From NCBI GenBank assembly GCA_020137815.1, contig CM035352.1:6634001-6698000 (forward strand): a stretch of DNA of 64,000 bases, written 5' to 3'. Of the stretch, positions 8,489 through 63,409 are shown one piece after another. Numbering within the stretch: position 1 is the stretch's first letter; every line of letters begins with the position of its first letter. The notes below the pieces were generated by a model, which was not told the origin of the DNA, did no database searches, and was given only the letters and a program-made list of their open reading frames with translations. The stretch is from Hormiphora californensis (Eukaryota; Animalia; Ctenophora). The position numbers and the translations under genes were made by a program.

Positions 8489-16610
<8,122 letters not shown>

Positions 16611-34800: not shown

Positions 34801-37800
34801 ACTACCGGGCTGCTCATGTGCACATCAAGCTTCAGTCTGTGTCCGTGCCGGGGTAGCACTTGGTATTGCCCCGTTACTGTACCCGCCCTGTTCGCCTTGG
34901 GGAGGTGTGAGGTGTGAATTGTGAGTCATACAGCAGTTTTGTAAGTAAGTATGTGATATTCCAAGTTTAGCCCCCTCCCTTGTATGGCTAACACCACATT
35001 TTATGTCATAGATCAACCCCGGCCCCTGTATATTATCGACCACTCTATTGATACCTGAATTCGGTATTTACCTGAAGAGAAGTGTCAAGGGTCATAAAGT
35101 GGTCCAGAAATGCCAAGGTCTCCGCCAGGAATCGTTTTGTGTGAACATAACGAATAGAACTGAGGTGTAACTGCAGGGTGGAATCACAGCTTCTTTCCAA
35201 GTTCTTATCCTCAGCTTTGTATTTCCTTAATTCAAACTGTAGGGCCTCCTGGCCAAGAATGGTGAATTTCTCCCTGTATAGGCCAGCAGTGGGAGACTGA
35301 TCGTGAATACTAAGGTTACCCATGCGACCCTGACAGTCGATATATTGAGGGTGGGAACTGAGATGAAGGGTCACTTCTTCTATCCGGAAAAGAGCCAGAG
35401 GGTAGTTTTTCTTGTGGAGTGTTACATTCCATTCTTTGACTTGGAACAGAATCCGCCGACCGTGGTTCTCTTCCGGGGTGCTCTAGAGGGGAAACAAGAA
35501 TTATACCATTGATTTGATAAGAGTGATTAAAGAGAAAAAACGATTTTGCAGTACTAACAGTTAATATTCAATTAAGAGCAGGAGCTTTCGACTGATCTAT
35601 GTCAGACGTCTTCAACTATAAAAGTGGTTGATAAGAGTGGTTGCCATGGGAATTGGATTCTTGTCAAAATATGATTACAGTATGTACCTCTGCAGCAGCA
35701 ATTTTTGTCGAATCACCCATTTCGTTTAGGAAATCGTTCACTGCTTGTTTCCCTCTTACCACCCGGTCAGAGCTTGCACCGGGGGAAATCTTCAGAAAGT
35801 CAAGGAGCATAGCCAGTGTCTGTGGGTTAATGTTCATATCTACACAGTTTAAATCTACCACTGCTATCTTTCCTTCTTCCTAGCAGAGAGAATGATATTA
35901 ATAGAGAGATATGGAGAGAATATAGGAAGAGAGGGAGAGAACTGAGAGAGCAAATAGAATGTAAGAGAAAGATAAGTTTAGCATGCTCAATGACCAGTTT
36001 GTTTACACCGTGAGTGTATTACAGGATGTAACATATCAAGAAGCTAACCTCAAGTTCCGGTAGATAATCAGATATCCGGATACTGACAAGGGCCTCCATG
36101 TTGCTCCCTTTCTTGTGAGGGGAAGGTACAACTGCACCCGCTGGTCCCTGGGCTGCGAGACTTCCTATAACAGGGGGATCGGTCGTGGAACAAGTGCTAA
36201 CAATGCGCGCATTTGTGGTTTTGTAAGTTTTGTGTCCGCGCGCCGTACTTATTTAGGCTCTTTTGGACTCTGGGGATTTTGGGGTTGGTCCAATAGAAAT
36301 TCTAAGGTCACACTCACATCAGGCTCAGCTGATGTCTGAGTTACCCTCTACACACACAGGCACTTTGGAATGCATGATTTATCAGCTCCACCACAGTGAG
36401 ATAACCGTGATAATCAAATATCACATATATTTACTGTCGACAATCGAGTGACAAATAGAGTTAACTTGTCACTGTGACAAGGGGCTTATTTATACAATTA
36501 AATTGTGTAAGTTATATAGATTTAATAATAACTGTGACAAGTTAACTCTATTTGTATCATGGACACCTAACGAGATGAAATATATGCTATCTACCAGGTC
36601 CTGATTTGTAAGATATATCCCTGCTATCGAGTGGTACACATACCTGCTCTAGATTTCTTGGGAGTGAAATACTCAGTCGTCGGGGGTAGGCGGTCCTTGT
36701 GTCGACTTTTAAACAGATGCCGAGCTGGACTATCCTTCTTGACAAGCTTGTCAATCACGTCAACTTTCTCCAGTGTCACGAAGATGTCTTGTAGCTTCTT
36801 TTCTCTGAGACAGGTTGGAATTAGCTTGTCACAAATTTTAACGTCCCTAACTAATATAAGTTGGTTAAAACCCTCCAACTAGTTCTGAAGAAGTCACATA
36901 TTAACATTTATTTAAAACTCACTTTAGTCCCGAGACAGAGAATCTCTCCAGCCATATCTCGGCCAGTTCGGGTTTAGTTTTGTCCAGTAGATCACCCTGT
37001 AGCAGGACCAAAACGGAGGGTAGAGTGAACTCCCACTCGACTCCTGTACAGAGTGTGTGTGTGTGTGTGTGTGAGGGGGGGGGGGGTATACAGGATGTGT
37101 ATATGTTGTACCAGTTGCAATTCTAGTCTGTTTACTACCCCACTGGGATGCTTGCCAGATTTAATCAAGTGACTTCTATCTCTCTTACGTTAGAGAACAC
37201 TGGTTGTTATGTATTTATTGACATGATATGTCATATGTCATAATATGATGTTATGTGTTTATTGACGTATGAAGATTAGACAAAACAACAGTGTTTTATT
37301 ATTATGTTTTGGTACAAAATGATAACCCACGTTTTGACTTCTTGGTCACTGCTGCTTCCTCTCCACGGTTTAGGGAAAGTGTTCTCATCCTGTGTTTTGG
37401 TGCTTTAAAATACGTAGCGTACCTGAAATGGTAATAGTAGTATTAAATAGTAGTACCTGAGCTGTAGCAGTAAGTAGTATTAAATTTCTTAAATAATTGG
37501 ATTGAAAGAACAATGGTAGCGATAGAGACTACTACTTCTGCAGTAATATCGAGTACCTATACTCTCTATTACAATCTTGGCCTCACAGCACGTGGTGCAT
37601 TACATTTCTAATCAGCAAAGATTAATGATGATCTGTTCTTGACGTAAAATATAATCGTTACTTCAAATGGTGAATAATATTCAACGCTGCTATCTAAACT
37701 TTGCTCTCCTTTCTCTCAAAAGCACAACAATATTTACCGTGTCGTTTCGATGATCTGCTCGTAGAGAAGTTTGGAAAGGGTAACCTGAATGCCCTGGGGT

Positions 37801-54700: not shown

Positions 54701-57692
54701 TACTGGACAGTACTTGATCTCGGAAGTCTTTGCCACATAAACGTAGCTTTACAGGCCGGTCAGAACCATCCTTGTATTTCCCAAGTCGCTTCATACTGGA
54801 AATACCAGTAATACACGCACCCATACTGTTAAACACTCGCTTAATTTCGTTCTCCAGATCCTCATCGTTCTCAGCCCGGTCATCAAACAGACCATGCACA
54901 ATAACATTGTTCGCCCTGTCCTCTGTCGCTACAGCAATAGCATGACGTACCCGCTGCGGTGCTAGGGCAGTCTCACAGTTTTTCTGGAGAAGATTTAATC
55001 TCCTTCTCAGCGGTAGACTGCACGGCAATGATCTCACCGTCTCTCTTCTCCAACAGCTCACACTGTAGCTTGACTAAGCGGTCCTGGGCCTCAACCAACA
55101 ATCGCTGTGCGGTGATAAGCTCCTCTTGACAGTTAATGATTCTCCTCTCACACTCCTCAGTTTCAATAGACAGCTTGTCAATCGCCGGGTAACACCGCTC
55201 AACCAGCAAGCGACAGGCCTTCTCAGCAAACTCAGCAAGTTCAGGTTTTCCCACTCCCTTGATCTTACTCTTACTAGGACACTTCAGATTGTCCCAGAAA
55301 CAGGAAGCTGAACTAGCAGACCATTTCTTGGGGAATGAATCTGCCTCCTTCACATGAACAAACAGTTCTCGCACTAGGTCCACAACTTCACTCTGAACCT
55401 CACGGTATACCACCTTTGTCACTCTTTCATCACTGTTCACTCTGAGTCGGTTAGAAAAGCTGTTTCCAGAAGCAGTACTACCACTCATGACAGGTGAGCA
55501 CGAGGTGAGCACAGGGTGTTACAATTGGAGAGATGCTTGCGAACTTGACTGATAAGGGAGCTCACAAAACGGCACAAAAGCTGGAACAAGATAACAATAT
55601 AAGGTATACACCAAAAATAATAATATGAACTTACAATTTGACCCGTCTCTGGCAATCAATAATGTTGAGTATTCTGGCTCCCATATGATATTGTTTGCTG
55701 GTTAGTTTTAGTCGGATATCTTGGAGTGTTAGACTTGAGGTAAACCGAGCCTGATCATAACTTATCAGTGGCTCAGTACTTTTGTTTTGTGTCAACTCGA
55801 TCTTCGCTGATATAGGTTCCAGCACGTAGCACAACTGGAAGAGAAATGTGTTTTATAAAAATCACATTTTATAAAGGAGCAGATGTTTTTATGAAGGAGC
55901 AAACCTCATCTTCCATACAGTTATTCCCAAAGTTCCAATACACTGCCAAATCCTCCAGGTGGACCTCCTTTAGAACACAACCGTCCTCTGATGTAGCAGA
56001 CAAGGATGGTTGGGTAGAAAGGTGTTTTATTGTGATACCAACACAAAACGGAATTGAGGGAACTGAAACCCTGTCTTCGTACCGAATGTGCACATCATTC
56101 ACAACAAACTGAGAGAAGGGAATTAATGAGGGGGGGGGGGTTCCAGTTTTGTAAATTCACCCCTCTAGTTGTGATCATCAGAAATCACTTGAGAAGTATC
56201 AAGTGAAATTATACCTTGCCAATTAAAATTCAAATATCCAGTCGAGATGCTCGTGGGGGAGGGGGGTTTGCCCGGTAAATCGGGGGCGCCCGATTAATAT
56301 ACCGGGGTTCGACTGTACCTTCAAGTTCTCTATCACAGAGGTGAAGTAGGATGATGCGAAGGAAGACAGCCAGCCCTTTGATTGTGCATACAGTCTCTGT
56401 GAGATCTGCTGCTCAAGGCTCTCTAGTTTCCGTTGCAGTGCAGCCTTCACTTGTTCTTCCTCTCGTTCGGGGTCGTACTAAAAAAGAACGTGATTTCTAG
56501 CAATAGAAGGGAATTAATAGTGGTGTTTTAAAATGTATTGTGGTACACAATTTGATCGGTAACTTCACGTGATTTCATACAGTCTACACCAACACATGAA
56601 ATAAAATCAATGAACGAGTTGTGTTTTACCCTTGAGAAACCTTTACAGTTCTGAAAATGTTAAATAAAATAAAGTTCACTGTTCAGATTTGAAGAATTTT
56701 ATCAAAATTCTAGAAGGCTGAATCACTGATAGTTCTAACTCCACAGAAAGAGGAGGAAGTATATCTCATTTAGTACAGTTAGTACACTGGAAGCAGTAAT
56801 TGTACACTCGCTATATTGTACTTCTCTTGCGAGATCATAATATGCATTATGACGGATGCCACGCCTGGCTAATCTAGTGCATATCCTTGTAGAATGTTAG
56901 ACAGGGATTTGAAACTAAAGAGTTTTTTTCTCACGTCAGCGCGGCTATTTCTCGATCCATGTGACAGTCCGAATATAGAGGGTTCTGCCCAGAGTTTATC
57001 CTTATTACTTGTCCCATCACTTCACAATTTAATATGGGAAGGGGTAACTACTTCCCCCCTGTACAATAATTGATTCCCTACCTCGCTGCCTTGATAAGGC
57101 GTTGCATGAATGTAGAGTTGTGAGAGGCACAGTACAATACTGTTACTACTGATACCAGCTGTTACTGGGACCTGCAGTTGCAGCTTACCCACAGTACCTG
57201 AGAGAGAAATGATGAGGGGTCATGGGAAGTGGTAGTAAGAGTGGGGTAAGAGTGGGGTAAGAGTGGGGTAAGAGTGGGGTAAGAGTGGGGTAAGAGTGGG
57301 GTAAGAGTGGGGTAAGAGTGGGGTAAGAGTGGGGTAAGAGTGGGGTAAGAGTGGGGTAAGAGTGGGGTAAGAGTGGGGTAAGAGTGAGTTTTTAAAACCT
57401 ACCATCTGTAACCTTGAAGGGGAGATTGAGAGTTTCTAGTGCATCTTCTCTGAGTTTGAGATTTTCAAGCTCGACCGATCCCTGTGTCAGGCCAATGTGT
57501 ACCTAAGAAGGGTGGGTTTATAAATTAGATGGCATTTCTTTTAGACATACTTGAGTCATGGTTACCATGGTTACCATCACTACATGCTACATCAATACAA
57601 GTGTTTACCTGGTGCAAGTTAACGTTGCTAAGGTAACGGGCAAGGTATTTGTTTAGGAGCCATTCTGTGAAACTGTGGACTTGTCTCCACAT
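22898..57692 (-). CDS. VPS13D: Bulk lipid-transfer protein VPS13D, multi-exon (~35 kb; first exon 57609-57692, last ~22898-23283)
   Basis: Chorein-N (MWRQVHSFTEWLLNKYLARYL; GSVELENLKLR; NDVHIRYED), IQAPLLILP, TPPSTP, GWEPLVE, VAB region (FTWPRHDKDHLFCVR..WSGGF; PYHWDEP), ricin-like QHWTID, C-terminal GLFKGVVGTITKPAVGVFD and RMRLPR. Confidence 0.93.
24545..24650. repeat. AT-rich fold-back/inverted repeat in a VPS13D intron
   Basis: tattaatttagtgtcacta..atcgttgtttatc / gataaacaacgat..tagtgatactaaattaata. Confidence 0.65.
25477..26181 (+). CDS. Intronless protein with N-terminal membrane anchor and long acidic region, nested antisense in a VPS13D intron
   Basis: Open ~234-aa frame from ATG 25477; LLLATCTAGAAALAIWWAYRR anchor; E/D-rich; no recognised family. 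Confidence 0.65.
   Translation: MLSFNSKLLLATCTAGAAALAIWWAYRREDKDEPKDDLTITEIEKSKEIIEDTALVEDVVEVTETDEVTMMQDEVDMPDEVDITVSEEGEDVGGMSRGRSMLSLSTSSTLCNSRDRMMGSMGLIIEEEEEEDSDEYEEGEILVFSDSEESEEKGEVSEAEIEGEVKIDENLNVEVVPQNVEVRTEEPRTLSTGSIFPPPPPRQMTYAEFRSLAIEAEWQEALAHAMRIPDMSEF
28130..28268. repeat. 32-bp tandem repeat (~4 copies) in a short VPS13D intron
   Basis: cccatataaggtgttgttacaatcacgtaatg repeated. Confidence 0.85.
29752..29830. repeat. 18-bp tandem repeat (~4 copies) plus duplicated acceptor-region segment
   Basis: agttgagagaaggaggga repeats; ctgctcgtgggtactgacagagagtgg occurs twice (~29667, ~29723). Confidence 0.8.
30044..30152. mobile_element. 109-bp hAT-type MITE
   Basis: TIR CAGGAACCGACCGAA; 8-bp TSD ctgataag. 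Confidence 0.92.
33257..33469. mobile_element. Near-perfect fold-back MITE
   Basis: ~100-bp arms gggtagcgactggctatttgaaatggcggc.../...gccgccatttcaaatagccagtcgttaccc; TA flanks. Confidence 0.9.
36451..36555. repeat. Small inverted-repeat (MITE-like) element
   Basis: acaaatagagttaacttgtcac / gtgacaagttaactctatttgt. Confidence 0.6.
39372..39765. repeat. (GA)n and degenerate (TC)n microsatellites
   Basis: Direct inspection; abuts a VPS13D acceptor. Confidence 0.85.
40479..40589. mobile_element. Second copy (inverted) of the hAT-type MITE
   Basis: caggaaccgaccgaa...ttcggtcggttcagctg; 8-bp TSD ctattatc. Confidence 0.9.
44490..45598. mobile_element. Non-autonomous Tc1/mariner-like element with ~125-bp TIRs
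   Basis: TIR ccgcgcggcccaaaaaaaactaagggtacg...; TA TSD; additional internal inverted repeat. Confidence 0.92.
45806..45864. mobile_element. Short MITE remnant (CTCGATTTA TIR family)
   Basis: tcaaacctcgattta...taaatcgaggtttga. Confidence 0.6.
46438..47238. repeat. (GGGA)n tetranucleotide tract decaying into G-rich low-complexity sequence
   Basis: Direct inspection; abuts the VPS13D acceptor at ~46435. Confidence 0.85.
47762..47844. repeat. 21-bp tandem repeat, 4 copies
   Basis: atcacgtcgtcacactgacgg. Confidence 0.9.
48631..48736. repeat. (GA)n microsatellite
   Basis: Direct inspection. Confidence 0.9.
49219..49319. mobile_element. Short MITE (CTCGATTTACCGG TIR family)
   Basis: caatcaaacctcgatttaccgg...ccggtgaatcgaggttagactg. 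Confidence 0.7.
49385..51086 (+). CDS. Rhodopsin-like GPCR, 5 exons (49385-49528, 49739-49847, 50006-50141, 50295-50479, 50655-51086), nested antisense in a VPS13D intron; +1 frameshift near 49430
   Basis: GNALV (TM1), NIAVADI (TM2), KWVLGSALC, SGYRL, SYLPY, NTMANPLIY; GT-AG introns. Confidence 0.87.
52064..53215. mobile_element. ~1.15-kb non-autonomous TIR element, same family as 33257-33469
   Basis: gggtagcgactggctatttgaaac.../tttcaaatagccagtggctaccc; repeated tttcaaatagcc subterminal motif; TA flanks. Confidence 0.88.
54282..55601 (-). mobile_element. ORF1-only non-LTR retroelement (frameshifted ORF 55488-54531)
   Basis: Coiled coil followed by NVIVHGL..RLGK..RPVKLRL..VYISPDRSPEER (LINE ORF1 RRM/CTD type); (ATT)n tail; TSD aggtata (54275-81, 55602-08); no RT. 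Confidence 0.78.
56239..56315. mobile_element. Degenerate CAGTCG-TIR MITE abutting a VPS13D donor site
   Basis: cagtcga...ccggtaaatcggggg...ggggttcgactg-ta. Confidence 0.55.
57235..57385. repeat. 11-bp tandem repeat, ~14 copies, in VPS13D intron 2
   Basis: gtaagagtggg. Confidence 0.93.
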
Positions 57693-58131
57693 ACCAAGTT
57701 ACCAATCGTCACGCATTGTCAAAAGTTACATTTCTGGGATACATTGTGATATTTGATACTTTTACTTGTATTAGGTCATGGAACAACAACAACAACAACA
57801 ACAAAATGGATTTATATACCGACTAAATAGACAAGTACTCTCGATTGGTTCGAAGAGCAATTGCCATTCATAGCGGTTCTCTCATCCTATCTTGACATAT
57901 TGGTTGACAAAAGGTCGTAAATGGTAACTCATACTGGTGACTTATAACTGACATATATAGTAGACTTTATTAACTCTCAACACTTGGTGACTGTGGGTGA
58001 CAAGTATAATCAGAAAAAAATAATAACAAAAATGATAAACTGAATAGTATCTTAGATTATAAAGAATTATGTGACAGCAGCAGGGGTGACCGTGTGAGAA
58101 CGGGGACTAATGAATAACCGAAAAGAAATTA

Positions 58132-61100
58132 TTAAAGACTGATGTCGAAAACCAAATAAGGTCTTTCAGAGAAGGTAACAGTAGCATCGAACAGGTAGGT
58201 CTTCAGGCGAATACGGAAGGAGTCCTCTGAAGGTGCGTCTCTGAGGTTCTCCGGTAGGTTGTTCCAGACATGGGGGAGATATTGGGATATTCTCCTTTTT
58301 CCCAGTTTGCTCACTTTCACATTTCCAGAAAGTAGCTTTAACTTGTAATGGTCTACTTTACAGCTCTGACGAGTAGACTTCTGCACTGCAGTATTTTCAT
58401 CATGTTCCACTAGATCCTGAAGGTACTGAGGGGCACTTCCATAATAGATCTTGTACCCTAGTAGACAGATTTTGAAAAATATCCTCTTCTCAATCGTAAG
58501 GATATGGGAATCACGGTAGAAGGGGTCCAGATCAACTTTCCTCTCTCTGACTCCATGGATGTACCTTATTACTTGATTCATTAGTCCTTTCAGCGGCTTG
58601 ATGGTAGAGGCCGGTAGGTTGAAATACAGAGCATTGCAATAGTCCACTTTGGATATGACCAGCTGGGAGGCAAGCATCAGACGTAGAGGTTTATCAATGA
58701 ATCGGCGGATCTGCCAGAGGTTCCTCATAGTAACTCCAGCATTCCTCTTGACCATGGAGATTTGACGTTTCATATCCATTTGTTCATCAAGATAGACACC
58801 AAGGGTCTATCCCGATTTTCCAGCCATGTCCATGGGGGAAATGATGTTCCCATTTAGCTCAAGAGTCAGGTCACTCTCCTCGCGTACAATATCCATCTTC
58901 TTCTTCTTTCCCAGGATAAGAAACTCAGTTTTATCCTCATTAACCATCAGTCTGTTTTCAATCATCCACGTTCTTACCTCCTCCAAACATTTCTCAATAG
59001 TCTCCTTTGAACCTGTCCAGCCTTCCACAGGGCAGAATCCGATGTATATAGTGCTATCATCTGCATAAAGTCGTATTGTGAGTCCATACTTCTTTACAAT
59101 AGGTTCTAGTGGTTCCACATACAGGGCAAAGAGGACAGGACCAAGGAGAGAGCCTTGGGGTACTCCATATTTGAGAAAGAGCCTAGGTGAGAGGGCATCT
59201 CCAATTTTAACTTTATAGCTCCTGTCATTGAGATAGCTAGTGAACCATTCGAGTACCGTTGATCCAATTCCAAACCGCTTCTCCAGTCTCTTCAAAAGCT
59301 GAGGGTGGTCAATGGTATCAAATGCAGCCGAAAGATCAATTTGAACGACTGCCACAACATTTCCTCTGTCCATTTCCCCAAGGACATCATCAACGACTCG
59401 CACCATATGTGTCTCACAACTGTGGTTGGGGCGAAAACCAGATTGGCATTCACCTCGCAGGTCGTTTTTCTCCAAATGTTCATTTAGCTGTATATTAACA
59501 GCTTTCTCCGCTAGCTTGGACAGAACACTGAGATTCGAGACTGGTCTGTAGTTCGCAAGAGAGTCCACATCTCCAGATGTATTCTTGATTGTGGGCCTCA
59601 CAATAGCCTCTTTCAGTCCTGACGGGAATACACCACTCTGTAAAGAAGTGTTCACGATTTCGGTAAGCACTGGTAGTAGAGTCGGGAGAAGCTGCTTCAG
59701 CAGAGAGGTCGGGATAGGGTCTAAGTCACAGAACTTATCCGGCAGGCTCTTTACAAGGCTTGCCACTTCATCTTCAGTCATAAGACTGAAGGTCTCAAAT
59801 CTTTCTGTCTCTCCTTTAAAAGCACCGGACTCCGTTGATTTCTTTTCACCCAACTCTTCAATCTTGTCACCAATCTTCTTCTGTAGTTTATCAATCTTGG
59901 ACTTGAAAAACTCTCCAAACTCAGTTGCTAGTTTCTCCGGGTTGACCATATCTGGGAGGATAACATTGGAGTTACCCAGTAGCTTGCTCAGTTGTTGGTT
60001 GAGCCTCTTTTGATCGCGTCCACAGAGTTCAATATTTCTTCTGGTGTATTCTGACCGTTTTCTGACCTCCATCTTGTTGAAAGCTGACCTTAGTTCCACA
60101 TACATGGCCCTTAGCTGCGGCTTCTCTTTTGTCTTGTCTTTTCTCCACTTTCTCTCAGCACGCCGCTTCTTCCTCCGGAGGGTTAGCAGCTCTTCATCCA
60201 TCCATGGTGTATACTTCTCTTTCTTCCTTCTCTTCTTCATTGGACAGTGCTTATCAACCAGGGCTAGCAACGTTCCATATAACTTCTCAACAAGGCTATT
60301 AACATCCTCTTCATCAGCAGGTGAGGTAAACAGTCCACTGGCCTTTAGATCCTCATTAAAACTCTCCACATCCACCTTCGAAAAGTCCCGATACCAAATT
60401 GTCTCCGGCCGTTTCCTCTTACTGATCCTCGCAGTCAGTTGTAGGTCCACAGTAATAAGATGGTGGTCTGAAGTAGTTCCCTCCTCCAAGATCCTAACTG
60501 GTTCAAGACAATCTGCTACTGTAGCATCCATCAGGGCTAGGTCCAGAGTACCTCCATGTCTGTGTGTTGATATCAAGGGAACCATCTGTTTGAAGTCAAA
60601 CTCCTCGATCATCTCCAGCTTTTTTGGATAAAATTCATCAGGCCTTTCCATGTGAAAGTTGAAGTCTCCCATGATTAATGGTGTCCCGACTTTACAGTTT
60701 AGTTCCTCAAGGTATCCCTTGAATTCATCCAGGAAGTGGCTCTGGGTATGAGGTGCCTTCTTCGAGTACGGTGGCCTATAGATGTTTACTAGCCGGTACA
60801 TCTCACTAGCATTTCCAATAGTAGTCTCTGTACACTCAAAGGTCTTGAAACACTTGGTAGGTCCAGATTTAACACCCAGGTCCGCTCTGTATACCATTGC
60901 TACTCCACCACCAATCCTCTGCTTCCTCGGTGCCGAGTGGATTTCCCATCCTCTTTCCTTTATCTCATGATGTTTAGCATTGTCACCTTTCCTCAGGTAG
61001 GTCTCTTGAAGAAGACAGATATCAACAAGCTCGTCCTCAAGGTGTTCCAGTACACCAGCAGTCTTATTGACAAGGGAGTTGCAGTTCAATGTTCCAACTC

Positions 61101-61164
61101 TTAGTGAGTTCTCCTTCTTTCCAAGAAGTCTCGTGCCTTCCGACTGTACTCGTTTTTTAACATC
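58132..61164 (-). CDS. LINE ORF2 (APE endonuclease + reverse transcriptase), one in-frame TAG at 58807-58809
   Basis: LNCNSL, LQET, IYRPP, MGDFN, TLDL, SDHH; CQSGFR, DLSAAFDTIDH, GVPQGS, YADD; ORFs 58807-61089 and 58132-58779 share a frame. Confidence 0.93.
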
Positions 61165-62315
61165 TCAGCTCCGGCTGTTCTACTCATCAATCTCTCCTTC
61201 TCCATGATAAAGAAGGGACATTGGAAACTGTTCGCTGTGTGGGTGGTGGCATTGAGCTGATCGATCTTGCTTCGGCTACTCTTGCAGTTTGCACAGCATC
61301 TGGAGTCAACTTTTCTATCCTTCTTCACTTGACAATCCTTGAACCGATGATTTCCAGCACAGTAGGTACAAACTGGATCACCGCTGTCTCTCCTGGGGCA
61401 CATCACTGAGTCTGATTTGTGACCATAGCGTTGACACTTGAAACATTGAACGATATGGAATCGATCCTTCACAATGTGGATTTGAAAATCAAGGTTAATT
61501 CTGTCATTCCTTTTGCGAACAATCTCCCGTATCTTTTTTGACATCTGGACAACTGCATATCGATCCTCCTTATGAAGAAAGATGACTTTCAGTTCCTCTT
61601 GGTGACTTTCAACCTGCTCTTTGATTTCCTCATTTTTCCTCAGTATTTCACTGTACACTTCCTCGGCAGTGGTAATTTCTCCAGCAATGTCTGAGATTGT
61701 AACTTTGGGATTGAGCTTCTTGGTGGTCAGAGTGGCTGTTGAAGTATCAAATTCAGATTTGAGCAGTTCTTCAGCTTTGTCTCGTTGAGACTTGTCCTTG
61801 AAAACTAGATTGGTATCCTCTTCATTCGAGCTGGTTCCATCAACTGGGATTGACTGCAGAGTCTTTCGTACCTTCGCCTTTACAACTTTCCACTTTTCCA
61901 GTCCAACTTTCTCAAGTTTGAGGGTGTGCTTCTGTGGTGTCTTCTTAGGGCTGGGGTTGAGCAACTTTCCAGTATCATCAGTCTTCTCCTTGCCGTTTAT
62001 CGCCTTCTGTATCATGTCTGGTATGTTTGCAAAACACTCCCGCATAGCCTCAAGCTCCTTGAGAACCTGTTCAGACCTATCCTGTCCCACTACTGCTCCT
62101 TCTTCTGACTTGGTCTTCACAAGGTCTTCCTGCTGCTTGTCCACCATTCTCAATAGGTTAATAGCAAAATTCCATAGAATATCTTTAGTGATACCCGCTG
62201 GGGGAGCTTTTTTACCTTGCAAGATTGGGTCCATATCCACAGGTAGATTATCTTTCATAAACGTGTCCAAATCTTTCCTCGTCCATAACTTTAGCGGGAT
62301 TGCCTTCAATGTCAT
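61101..62315 (-). CDS. LINE ORF1 with three zinc knuckles
   Basis: QCFKCQRYGH..C, CTYCAGNH...C, CANC...H.A....C. Confidence 0.9.
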   Translation of the reverse strand: MTLKAIPLKLWTRKDLDTFMKDNLPVDMDPILQGKKAPPAGITKDILWNFAINLLRMVDKQQEDLVKTKSEEGAVVGQDRSEQVLKELEAMRECFANIPDMIQKAINGKEKTDDTGKLLNPSPKKTPQKHTLKLEKVGLEKWKVVKAKVRKTLQSIPVDGTSSNEEDTNLVFKDKSQRDKAEELLKSEFDTSTATLTTKKLNPKVTISDIAGEITTAEEVYSEILRKNEEIKEQVESHQEELKVIFLHKEDRYAVVQMSKKIREIVRKRNDRINLDFQIHIVKDRFHIVQCFKCQRYGHKSDSVMCPRRDSGDPVCTYCAGNHRFKDCQVKKDRKVDSRCCANCKSSRSKIDQLNATTHTANSFQCPFFIMEKERLMSRTAGAEMLKNEYSRKARDFLERRRTH

Positions 62316-62528
62316 CACTAGCTACGATCTGCAGGATAAATTCAAGGCCTCGCCTAACGACAACTAGTGTCAATCCTCCGGGTCAGATCCGGTTTTCTCT
62401 TGTCTTAGGCCTTGTCTTTCTCACACAGAAACTGTTACCAGTCTCTGATAAACCCAGAAAAGACAAAACAGAAAAGTATAAAGAGCCGAATATATACCAA
62501 AGAACTTAGCGAATTGGAAAAACGAAAC

Positions 62529-62572
62529 CTCAAATTAATTTGTTTAAAGTAGTGTTGAAAAGTTTGAAACAC
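62529..62572 (-). other. Genomic copy of a ctenophore trans-spliced leader exon
   Basis: GTGTTTCAAACTTTTCAACACTACTTTAAACAAATTAATTTGAG matches my recollection of the ctenophore leader (GAGTTTCAAACTTTTCAACACTACTTTAAACAAATTAATTTGAG) at all but base 2; not database-verified. Confidence 0.8.
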
Positions 62573-62593
62573 AAAACAAAATTGAAAATAAAT

Positions 62594-63409
62594 TCAACTC
62601 AAATTACTCAAAAATGTACGCTCTAAAAATGAATCTAAATCACCTAAACCTTCTGGAGTAGACTCTAACGCGGCGATAGTTCGTGTTTTCCCTAATCTGT
62701 AAACTGAGTAGTCTCTGACCACACCGTTCAGCCGGTCCTGTTTAATTGTCTCCTTGACAAGTTTCCTAAGAATAAGTTCACACTGGTGTTTCAGATTCTC
62801 CCTACACTTGAGTCTGTCTGCTTCCCGCTCCTTCTCCTTCTCTCCCGGGTCTACCTCAGCAGGTTGAATAAGGAGATAGTGTAGAAACTCACGGGCACTT
62901 TTCAAGCGAGCACTGGTAGTTGAGTCACTGAACGAGTTGATGGGTTCTAATTTTAAAACATGTTTCTCCCATTGTTCTGAAGGAGGCTCCATGGCAACTG
63001 AAACGCGATGAATGGTTTCCATGGTGACCAAAGGGTTGTCACGTGATAAGTTGGCCTTACATGCAGCCTCAACTGACCCTGGAAAGTGAATCTGAGCAAA
63101 CACACAGCCACACCGCTGAGCTAAATGAAACACCTCTTTCCGCATTCCTCTAAGATGGAAAGTGTCATCTAATAGTAAAACAAGATCCCCTTTTGTACTT
63201 TTAATTACCTCAGCAACATGCTCCAGGACCTTTTTCCTGGCAGTATTCCAGCCATTCGGGTCTTTATCCATATCAACCCTACCAATTATTTCATCGTAAC
63301 AAATTACAGAAATTGAAAGTTTAGAAGATTCATCCTGTTGTAGTTTGTGTGCGAGAGTGCTCTTACCAACCGCTGGAATTCCAACGAAGCAGACCAAAAC
63401 TTTTGTCAT
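62594..63409 (-). CDS. PSTK: L-seryl-tRNA(Sec) kinase, intronless
   Basis: P-loop GIPAVGKST; LLDDTFHLRGMRKEVFHLA..FAQIHF; MEPP..WEK; ADRLKC..N..H..E..LRK. Confidence 0.87.
   Translation of the reverse strand: MTKVLVCFVGIPAVGKSTLAHKLQQDESSKLSISVICYDEIIGRVDMDKDPNGWNTARKKVLEHVAEVIKSTKGDLVLLLDDTFHLRGMRKEVFHLAQRCGCVFAQIHFPGSVEAACKANLSRDNPLVTMETIHRVSVAMEPPSEQWEKHVLKLEPINSFSDSTTSARLKSAREFLHYLLIQPAEVDPGEKEKEREADRLKCRENLKHQCELILRKLVKETIKQDRLNGVVRDYSVYRLGKTRTIAALESTPEGLGDLDSFLERTFLSNLS

Follow-up and report, generated by a model that had tools for sequence, protein, structure and literature searches.

In the present study, a stretch of 64,000 nt from the ctenophore Hormiphora californensis (contig CM035352.1, forward-strand positions 6,634,001 to 6,698,000; here called the window) was analysed, and a long interspersed nuclear element (LINE) of 4.8 kb with two open reading frames (ORFs) was found lying in sense between the genes PSTK and VPS13. 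The DNA of this LINE starts with the spliced leader (SL) of its host. We consider it rather probable that the RNA of the LINE was trans-spliced and then reverse-transcribed almost to the cap, the leader likely being renewed in each cycle at its terminal AG. The leader-headed structure is real and general across several ctenophore retroelement groups, and the insertion in the window is polymorphic and recent.

Leader identity, junctions and the empty site

The minus-strand sequence at 62572-62529 agrees in 43 of 44 bases with the printed 44-nt leader of H. californensis (PMC8527503). Its inner part, 62570-62529, is a perfect copy of the last 42 bases of the 43-nt exon of an SL-RNA gene present in a metagenome contig (locus L022), and it is the single leader copy in the window (in BLAST it matches itself with E 1e-19, the next match being 12 nt long). 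The initial annotation had described a 44-mer as the ctenophore leader; this identity is upheld by the published match and by 23 of the 34 loci of the scan given below, where the leader precedes a host ORF, but letters 1 and 2 of the 44-mer belong to the host, and letters 3 and 4 are common to host and leader. The exon copy proper (62529..62570, minus strand) holds 42 of 43 nt, the first A being missing. In the leader exon AG occurs only at positions 1 and 42, and with the first AG lost from the copy, the terminal one is its sole AG and thus the first usable acceptor. The Hormiphora leader is carried by 56% of Iso-Seq reads and occurs at 718 genomic places, with 491 in Mnemiopsis, and the passage reporting these counts does not state the nature of the places (PMC8527503).

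The SL-RNA gene (L022:263-1513) has the 43-nt exon followed by a GTAAG donor and forms, together with a 5S rRNA gene of the same orientation, a tandem repeat of 778 bp; no match to any Rfam SL family was found for it. Its predicted fold reaches -39.6 kcal/mol over 135 nt, against -9.2 over 126 nt for the corresponding window sequence. An Sm-site pattern search missed even L022 and is hence uninformative. The sequence after the terminal GAG of the window leader differs from the L022 intron, to which the 5' untranslated region (UTR) of the LINE has no similarity, and therefore the window leader is not an SL-RNA gene; no match to this intron was found near the LINE tail or in the spacer at 57693..57781. 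The second result agrees with the earlier claim that no SL-RNA intron follows the tail, and the first speaks against such an intron after GAG, which the initial annotation had named as a refuting result. Loose-end consensuses at 62527 and 62570 in one DNA run (X1) resemble, by eye, the L022 intron and upstream flank.

In all 11 junctions available (the window and ten loci of the scan) the element begins exactly at the end of the leader exon. The leader is kept over 35-43 nt, perfect up to its break and then replaced by unrelated flanks; ten of the 11 copies are without 1-8 bases of the 5' end (one of them, L031, lies at a contig end), and the only AG lost is the first one of the exon, missing in ten of 11. 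The element leaders equal the SL-gene exon letter for letter despite diverged UTRs, whose first 150 bases are 93% identical between the window and locus L021, 73-75% identical among close subfamilies and 40-58% identical, which is near random, among the others. The window and L021 have the same UTR base at the junction in independent sites. Moreover, run X7 yielded one unbranched 471-nt contig leading from within the leader (62555) to 62087, into ORF1, at a depth of 609 (unique flank ~86); copies in that sample hence share the leader-UTR junction, free of the pattern bias of the scan. L021 and the X7 contig bear out the expectation that other family members carry the leader at the same junction. 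Depth sums at the leader were not taken as copy number.

SL intron sequence was found in no element locus, and a second leader fragment within 130 nt was absent from ten of the 11 junctions (flanks short in five), the AT-rich flank of L016 holding one 12-mer leader-like fragment. GT stands right after the leader at three of the 11 element junctions and at a single one of the 23 host-type junctions. The first AG past the junction is met at 21-35 in the seven members of the window clade as compared to 1-80 in host mRNAs, which is suggestive only. By eye, a common TAAC/C-run/GGGCAG-like UTR motif can be seen in the first 50 nt after the leader in L016, L020, L031 and L032, whose ORFs are unrelated. 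The contig of L020 (minus-strand start) opens at GTAAG and continues for 351 nt before the leader and LINE, and loci of records with the same prefix look like mRNAs; it may, weakly, represent unspliced intronic read-through in sense.

The proposed check of an empty PSTK-VPS13 site gave a positive answer: in contigs of four of four DNA runs (X1, X5, X7 and X12, which come from four studies, the window itself possibly stemming from one of them) the PSTK side runs straight on into the VPS13 side. Manual reading of the X5 and X1 records places the insertion at 62568-57786 (4783 nt), where it took the place of five target bases. It begins 25 nt past the PSTK stop, after a retained host spacer of 25 nt (62569..62593, minus strand; the left match of the X1 and X5 contigs ends at 62569), so the short gap noted earlier holds while its length of ~21 nt is corrected by the empty allele. 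Microhomology with the target amounts to two bases on the 5' side (62570-62569, GT) and four bases on the 3' side (57785-57782), and no target-site duplication was found, the longest shared word being 8 nt of T-rich sequence. The empty spacer measures 123 nt and has no leader, which implies that the leader came in with the element.

Leader-bearing retroelement-like loci among metagenome contigs

Metagenome contigs were scanned for 26 exact leader bases, with 14 5' positions left free; all returned contigs exceed 1 kb and the loci come from few record sets. The scan gave 35 matches in 34 loci. In 23 loci the leader lies at most 7 nt from the contig end and is followed by an unbroken host-type ORF (gene types by eye), and these are read as mRNA 5' ends; one locus is the SL-RNA/5S tandem gene, and in the remaining ten the leader is fused to retroelement-like ORFs. 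In eight loci the flank past the leader exceeds 7 nt; seven of these are element-like and one is the SL gene, with no host retrocopies among them. Leader scans of viral and prokaryote contigs returned no matches. The perfect run comes to within 3 nt of +1 in eight of the ten element loci, covering at least 11 of the 14 pattern-free positions.

Together with the window, the ten elements fall into four ORF1 groups without any cross-group BLAST match at E<1e-3, namely the window clade, L016/L032, L020 and L031. The window clade has seven members (the window, L003, L007, L008, L015, L021 and L034) with ORF1 31-93% identical; its six scan members all possess an ORF2 with endonuclease, and reverse transcriptase (RT) is present in the four that are long enough. 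In L020 an endonuclease is combined with an unrelated ORF1, L016 and L032 consist of ORF1 only, L032 ending in a (TAA)n tail, and L031 carries a PHD-like ORF with a high lead score. L032:462-1656 is a complete leader-capped ORF1-only element of ~1.2 kb, which along with L016 makes a candidate non-autonomous family.

The window has other retroelement copies as well. An ORF1-only element related to L016/L032 at ~55600-54280 (minus strand) is frameshifted and lies in sense in a VPS13 intron; it carries an (ATT)n tail, and a target duplication of 7 nt may flank it. A 5'-truncated LINE like L015 at 9211-10989 (plus strand) has an (ATT)n tail and no leader; by eye it is flanked by a direct duplication of ~55-60 nt and seems antisense to a host gene. 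The L032 family is represented at 36479-36531 (plus strand) by a short piece of its 3' end, which has a (TAA)n tail and, by eye, a 10-nt target duplication.

Origin and possible renewal of the leader

From the comparison of these sequences, the leader very probably derives from trans-spliced LINE RNA, and it was probably acquired by trans-splicing more than once. In the favoured cycle, target-primed reverse transcription would proceed from the (TTG)n tail, the target being the spacer of 123 nt between PSTK and VPS13, and the insertion would be finished by microhomology of 2-4 nt with the loss of five target bases. The varied 5' breaks and unrelated flanks are as expected of RT stopping near the cap. 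The sense copy would then be transcribed by host read-through or from a start upstream of the leader, and the terminal AG of the genomic leader would be used as acceptor, so that a fresh leader swaps exactly for the old one; such exact replacement would leave no tandem relic and would reset the 5' end. As a cis donor out-competes the leader (in the relevant passage of PMC4558846), trans-splicing should win in a spacer without an open upstream donor. Renewal in each cycle at the only remaining AG seems a fairly good possibility, while a LINE having no promoter at all is a doubtful one.

The initial annotation had proposed a trans-spliced, reverse-transcribed and integrated LINE RNA, which is supported by the leader identity, the exact exon-end junctions and the empty site; its suggestion of a CAG acceptor at 62445, or of an element-encoded 84-nt intron (62528-62445), is not supported and is rejected for the transposing RNA. 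L021 and the high-depth X7 contig retain the 84 nt, and so the acceptor at 62445 is without sign of use in the transposing RNA. Eight of the 11 elements have no GT at that place, and no joint of an 84-nt intron was found among 15 of 18 joints.

Several observations weigh against the renewal of the leader and its generality. GAG is in general a rare and poor 3' splice site, and in L016, L020 and L032 the junction is followed at once by TTTYAG (AG at +5), an acceptor expected to compete with GAG in any further round of splicing. Because 26 exact bases were required, decayed or leaderless copies are invisible to the scan and the invariance of the leader is partly selected. L016, L032 and L031 are elements by resemblance only, with no RT or endonuclease seen and no informative Pfam match, and the leaderless element at ~55600-54280 begins with a pyrimidine tract and CAG of its own. 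Among the contigs listed, none spans the filled host-leader junction. The weak acceptor, the competing TTTYAG in three elements and the preference of the scan for perfect leaders speak for another origin, in which the leader was captured once per lineage by trans-splicing and then inherited, the element having its own internal promoter and the leader being selected as a promoter element or translation enhancer. An identical DNA structure is predicted in that case, the 213-nt UTR has room for a promoter, and in Ascaris the leader exon acts as a promoter element of the SL gene. Inheritance is nevertheless regarded as unlikely. The 5' end should erode or scramble under it, given that ten of 11 copies have lost 1-8 bases there, whereas no subfamily with a common variant leader or an old flank was observed and four unrelated groups match the present SL-gene exon exactly with UTRs near random identity.

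The junctions bear more heavily on the other explanations. Abundant small RNAs are known switch partners of RT, and U6-L1 chimeras are comparable jumps, by which RT could have passed from the LINE RNA to the SL RNA; variable landing points in the LINE and a copied SL intron would be expected, but the exon end is the joining point in all 11 cases, each time with a complete 5' UTR behind it, the UTR base at the junction is the same in the window and L021, and the SL intron is absent, so this alternative, raised at the outset, is largely refuted and very improbable. Insertion into an SL-RNA gene in the manner of NeSL, SLACS or CRE, or an orphan SL gene beside the LINE, could be supposed from the GT that follows the leader. 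It is the least credible of all, since the empty allele has no leader, L022 with its GTAAG donor and 5S-linked repeat matches neither flank, the endonuclease is of APE type and GT is missing at the start of eight of the 11 elements; SL-gene targeting is thus refuted by the empty site, and the distinction from NeSL/SLACS/CRE drawn earlier is confirmed by the leaderless target spacer, the APE endonuclease and the lack of an SL intron at the tail. In sum, the junction results leave practically no room for an SL gene, for the targeting of SL genes or for template switching, and indicate trans-splicing as the source of the leader. The lack of a listed contig across the filled junction, together with the empty allele in X1, would also be consistent with an assembly artefact fusing two repeats to unique flank. 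Such an artefact is improbable, as L021 and X7 have the leader-UTR junction too, microhomology with the empty site is present at either end of the insertion, and a depth of ~8 at 58809 in X1 (1040.9 minus 1033.3), which is single-copy-like, carries the private letter of the window copy; it would affect the location alone, and the family pattern would stand.

The element, its locus and related systems

Behind the leader, the minus strand holds a 5' UTR of 213 nt (62316..62528; 93% identity to L021 across the first 150 nt), ORF1 of 404 aa (61101..62315), the ORF2 frame (58132..61164), which overlaps the end of ORF1, the 3' UTR (57805..58131) and a (TTG)7TT tail (57782..57804), the last four bases of which are common to the target. 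Cys/His knuckles lie in the C-terminal part of ORF1, where a pattern located one CCHC-type motif (residue 291) and two further Cys clusters were seen by eye; ORF1 gave no Pfam match. ORF2 has an APE endonuclease at its N-terminus (PF03372, E 1e-9) and an RT (PF00078, E 1e-30). The LINE is full-length as had been claimed, but it is not intact. Past the RT core, ORF2 is cut short by an in-frame stop (58809-58807) with the loss of the last 224 residues, and this stop is absent from nearly all other copies, another letter being found at depth 1033 of 1041 in X1 and at the entire depth in X5, X7 and X12. At about a dozen of the positions listed, this stop included, nearly all other copies differ from the window copy. 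Owing to the stop, the window copy cannot act as an autonomous source; it is a product, which at best could be mobilised in trans. In the region 61164-60900 (minus strand), the start of which overlaps the end of ORF1, the ORF2 frame has no Met until about residue 90, relatives having one near the start, and frameshifting or a lost start is possible.

The window RT is 53-56% identical to four other leader-bearing RTs, and in a tree made without clade-labelled references their common ancestor takes in 41 of 125 RTs; the best named match is a fish hypothetical protein (41%). An Rfam search of the 5' region gave two weak matches (E 1.7 and 4.4), taken as chance. The motifs of the LINE are presumably those of L2. 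LINEs of the L2 lineage in the Jockey superfamily are alike in having an APE and RT ORF2 and a simple-repeat tail, and probably in a CCHC-type ORF1, type I ORF1 occurring in L2 subgroups (PMC4120745); the window LINE is unlike them in that its 5' end is the host leader.

The gene order on the minus strand is an upstream gene (stop 63483), a 73-nt spacer, PSTK, the leader, the LINE and VPS13 (ATG 57692). PSTK (62594..63409), for L-seryl-tRNA(Sec) kinase, is an ORF of 271 aa without introns, with its stop at 62594 (TIGR03575 E 1.6e-23, under the curated cut-off). The remaining host spacer (57693..57781) contains, by eye, poly(A)-signal-like hexamers AATACA and AGTAAA as well as a candidate VPS13 acceptor; the tail was placed earlier at ~90 nt before the VPS13 ATG with everything on one strand, and 89 nt were measured, all on the minus strand. 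The first two VPS13-family exons (57692-57609 and 57502-57403, within 57403..57692, minus strand) are in frame, Pfam VPS13_N being matched on a later exon. The gene, given earlier as VPS13D, may be that paralogue or another one of the family. VPS13 intron 2 has a tandem array of an 11-nt unit at 57380-57235 (minus strand), the length of which differs among runs. Three same-strand genes are separated by the 73-nt spacer (63482-63410) and the empty 123-nt spacer (within 62593-57693) in an operon-like cluster, and these short spacers support an operon-like gene order. Operons have reportedly been claimed for Pleurobrachia. According to the passage on this point in a 2021 paper, no operons have so far been reported in ctenophores (PMC7986045).

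No paper on genomic LINEs with a leader at their start, whether from ctenophores or from any other animal group, came up in a literature search, the coverage of which did not extend to Derelle 2010, to Chapman 2010 or to the Hormiphora supplement, any of which may mention leader-bearing repeats. NeSL-1, SLACS, CZAR and CRE insert into SL genes with a restriction-like endonuclease, and R2, with one ORF, uses the same type of endonuclease in a 28S rDNA target. The former group resembles the window LINE in having a leader exon directly 5' of a non-LTR element, but its targets are SL genes, whereas the window LINE entered an ordinary leaderless spacer and has an APE endonuclease. SL-relic retrogenes of dinoflagellates, reportedly described by Slamovits and Keeling in 2008, are the closest in origin, and the release of R2 from its co-transcript is the closest in working. 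In dinoflagellates too, the leader is put into DNA by reverse transcription of trans-spliced RNA, and an AG of the genomic leader can be the acceptor in the next round, re-splicing at an AG inside the relic leaving SL-relic tandems (PMC12014239). The passengers there are host genes with relic tandems, whereas the ctenophore carriers are retroelements whose kept AG is terminal and in which no relic is seen. As in the proposed cycle, R2 RNA is freed from a host co-transcript by 5' processing, and its variable 5' junctions arise by microhomology (passage in PMC3774820); R2 does so with its own hepatitis delta virus-like ribozyme, a task that host trans-splicing would perform for the ctenophore LINE. 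Use of the host trans-splicing machinery by animal transposable element (TE) RNAs is already in print, ~30% of TE Iso-Seq reads in Hydra carrying an SL; these are RNA reads of all TE classes, and the passage concerned describes no leader fixed at genomic LINE 5' ends (PMC12220107).

This study has revealed that all seven dispersed leader loci with a clear genomic flank are retroelement-like 5' ends, which bears on the 718 copies of Hormiphora and the 491 of Mnemiopsis, and leader-headed retroelements are a likely explanation of the dispersed genomic leaders of ctenophores. It can tentatively be speculated from the sequences that several unrelated LINE families of ctenophores gave up their promoters and became mobile operon cistrons, in which the genomic leader would be the element's own acceptor, sense copies would be re-capped at full length and most of the 718 and 491 dispersed leaders would be their 5' ends. 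In comb jellies, young LINEs of full length can be recognised by the leader as a tag. If the renewal of the leader is true, the LINE would define and repair its 5' end through host trans-splicing, a job for which R2 uses a ribozyme and L1 an internal promoter.

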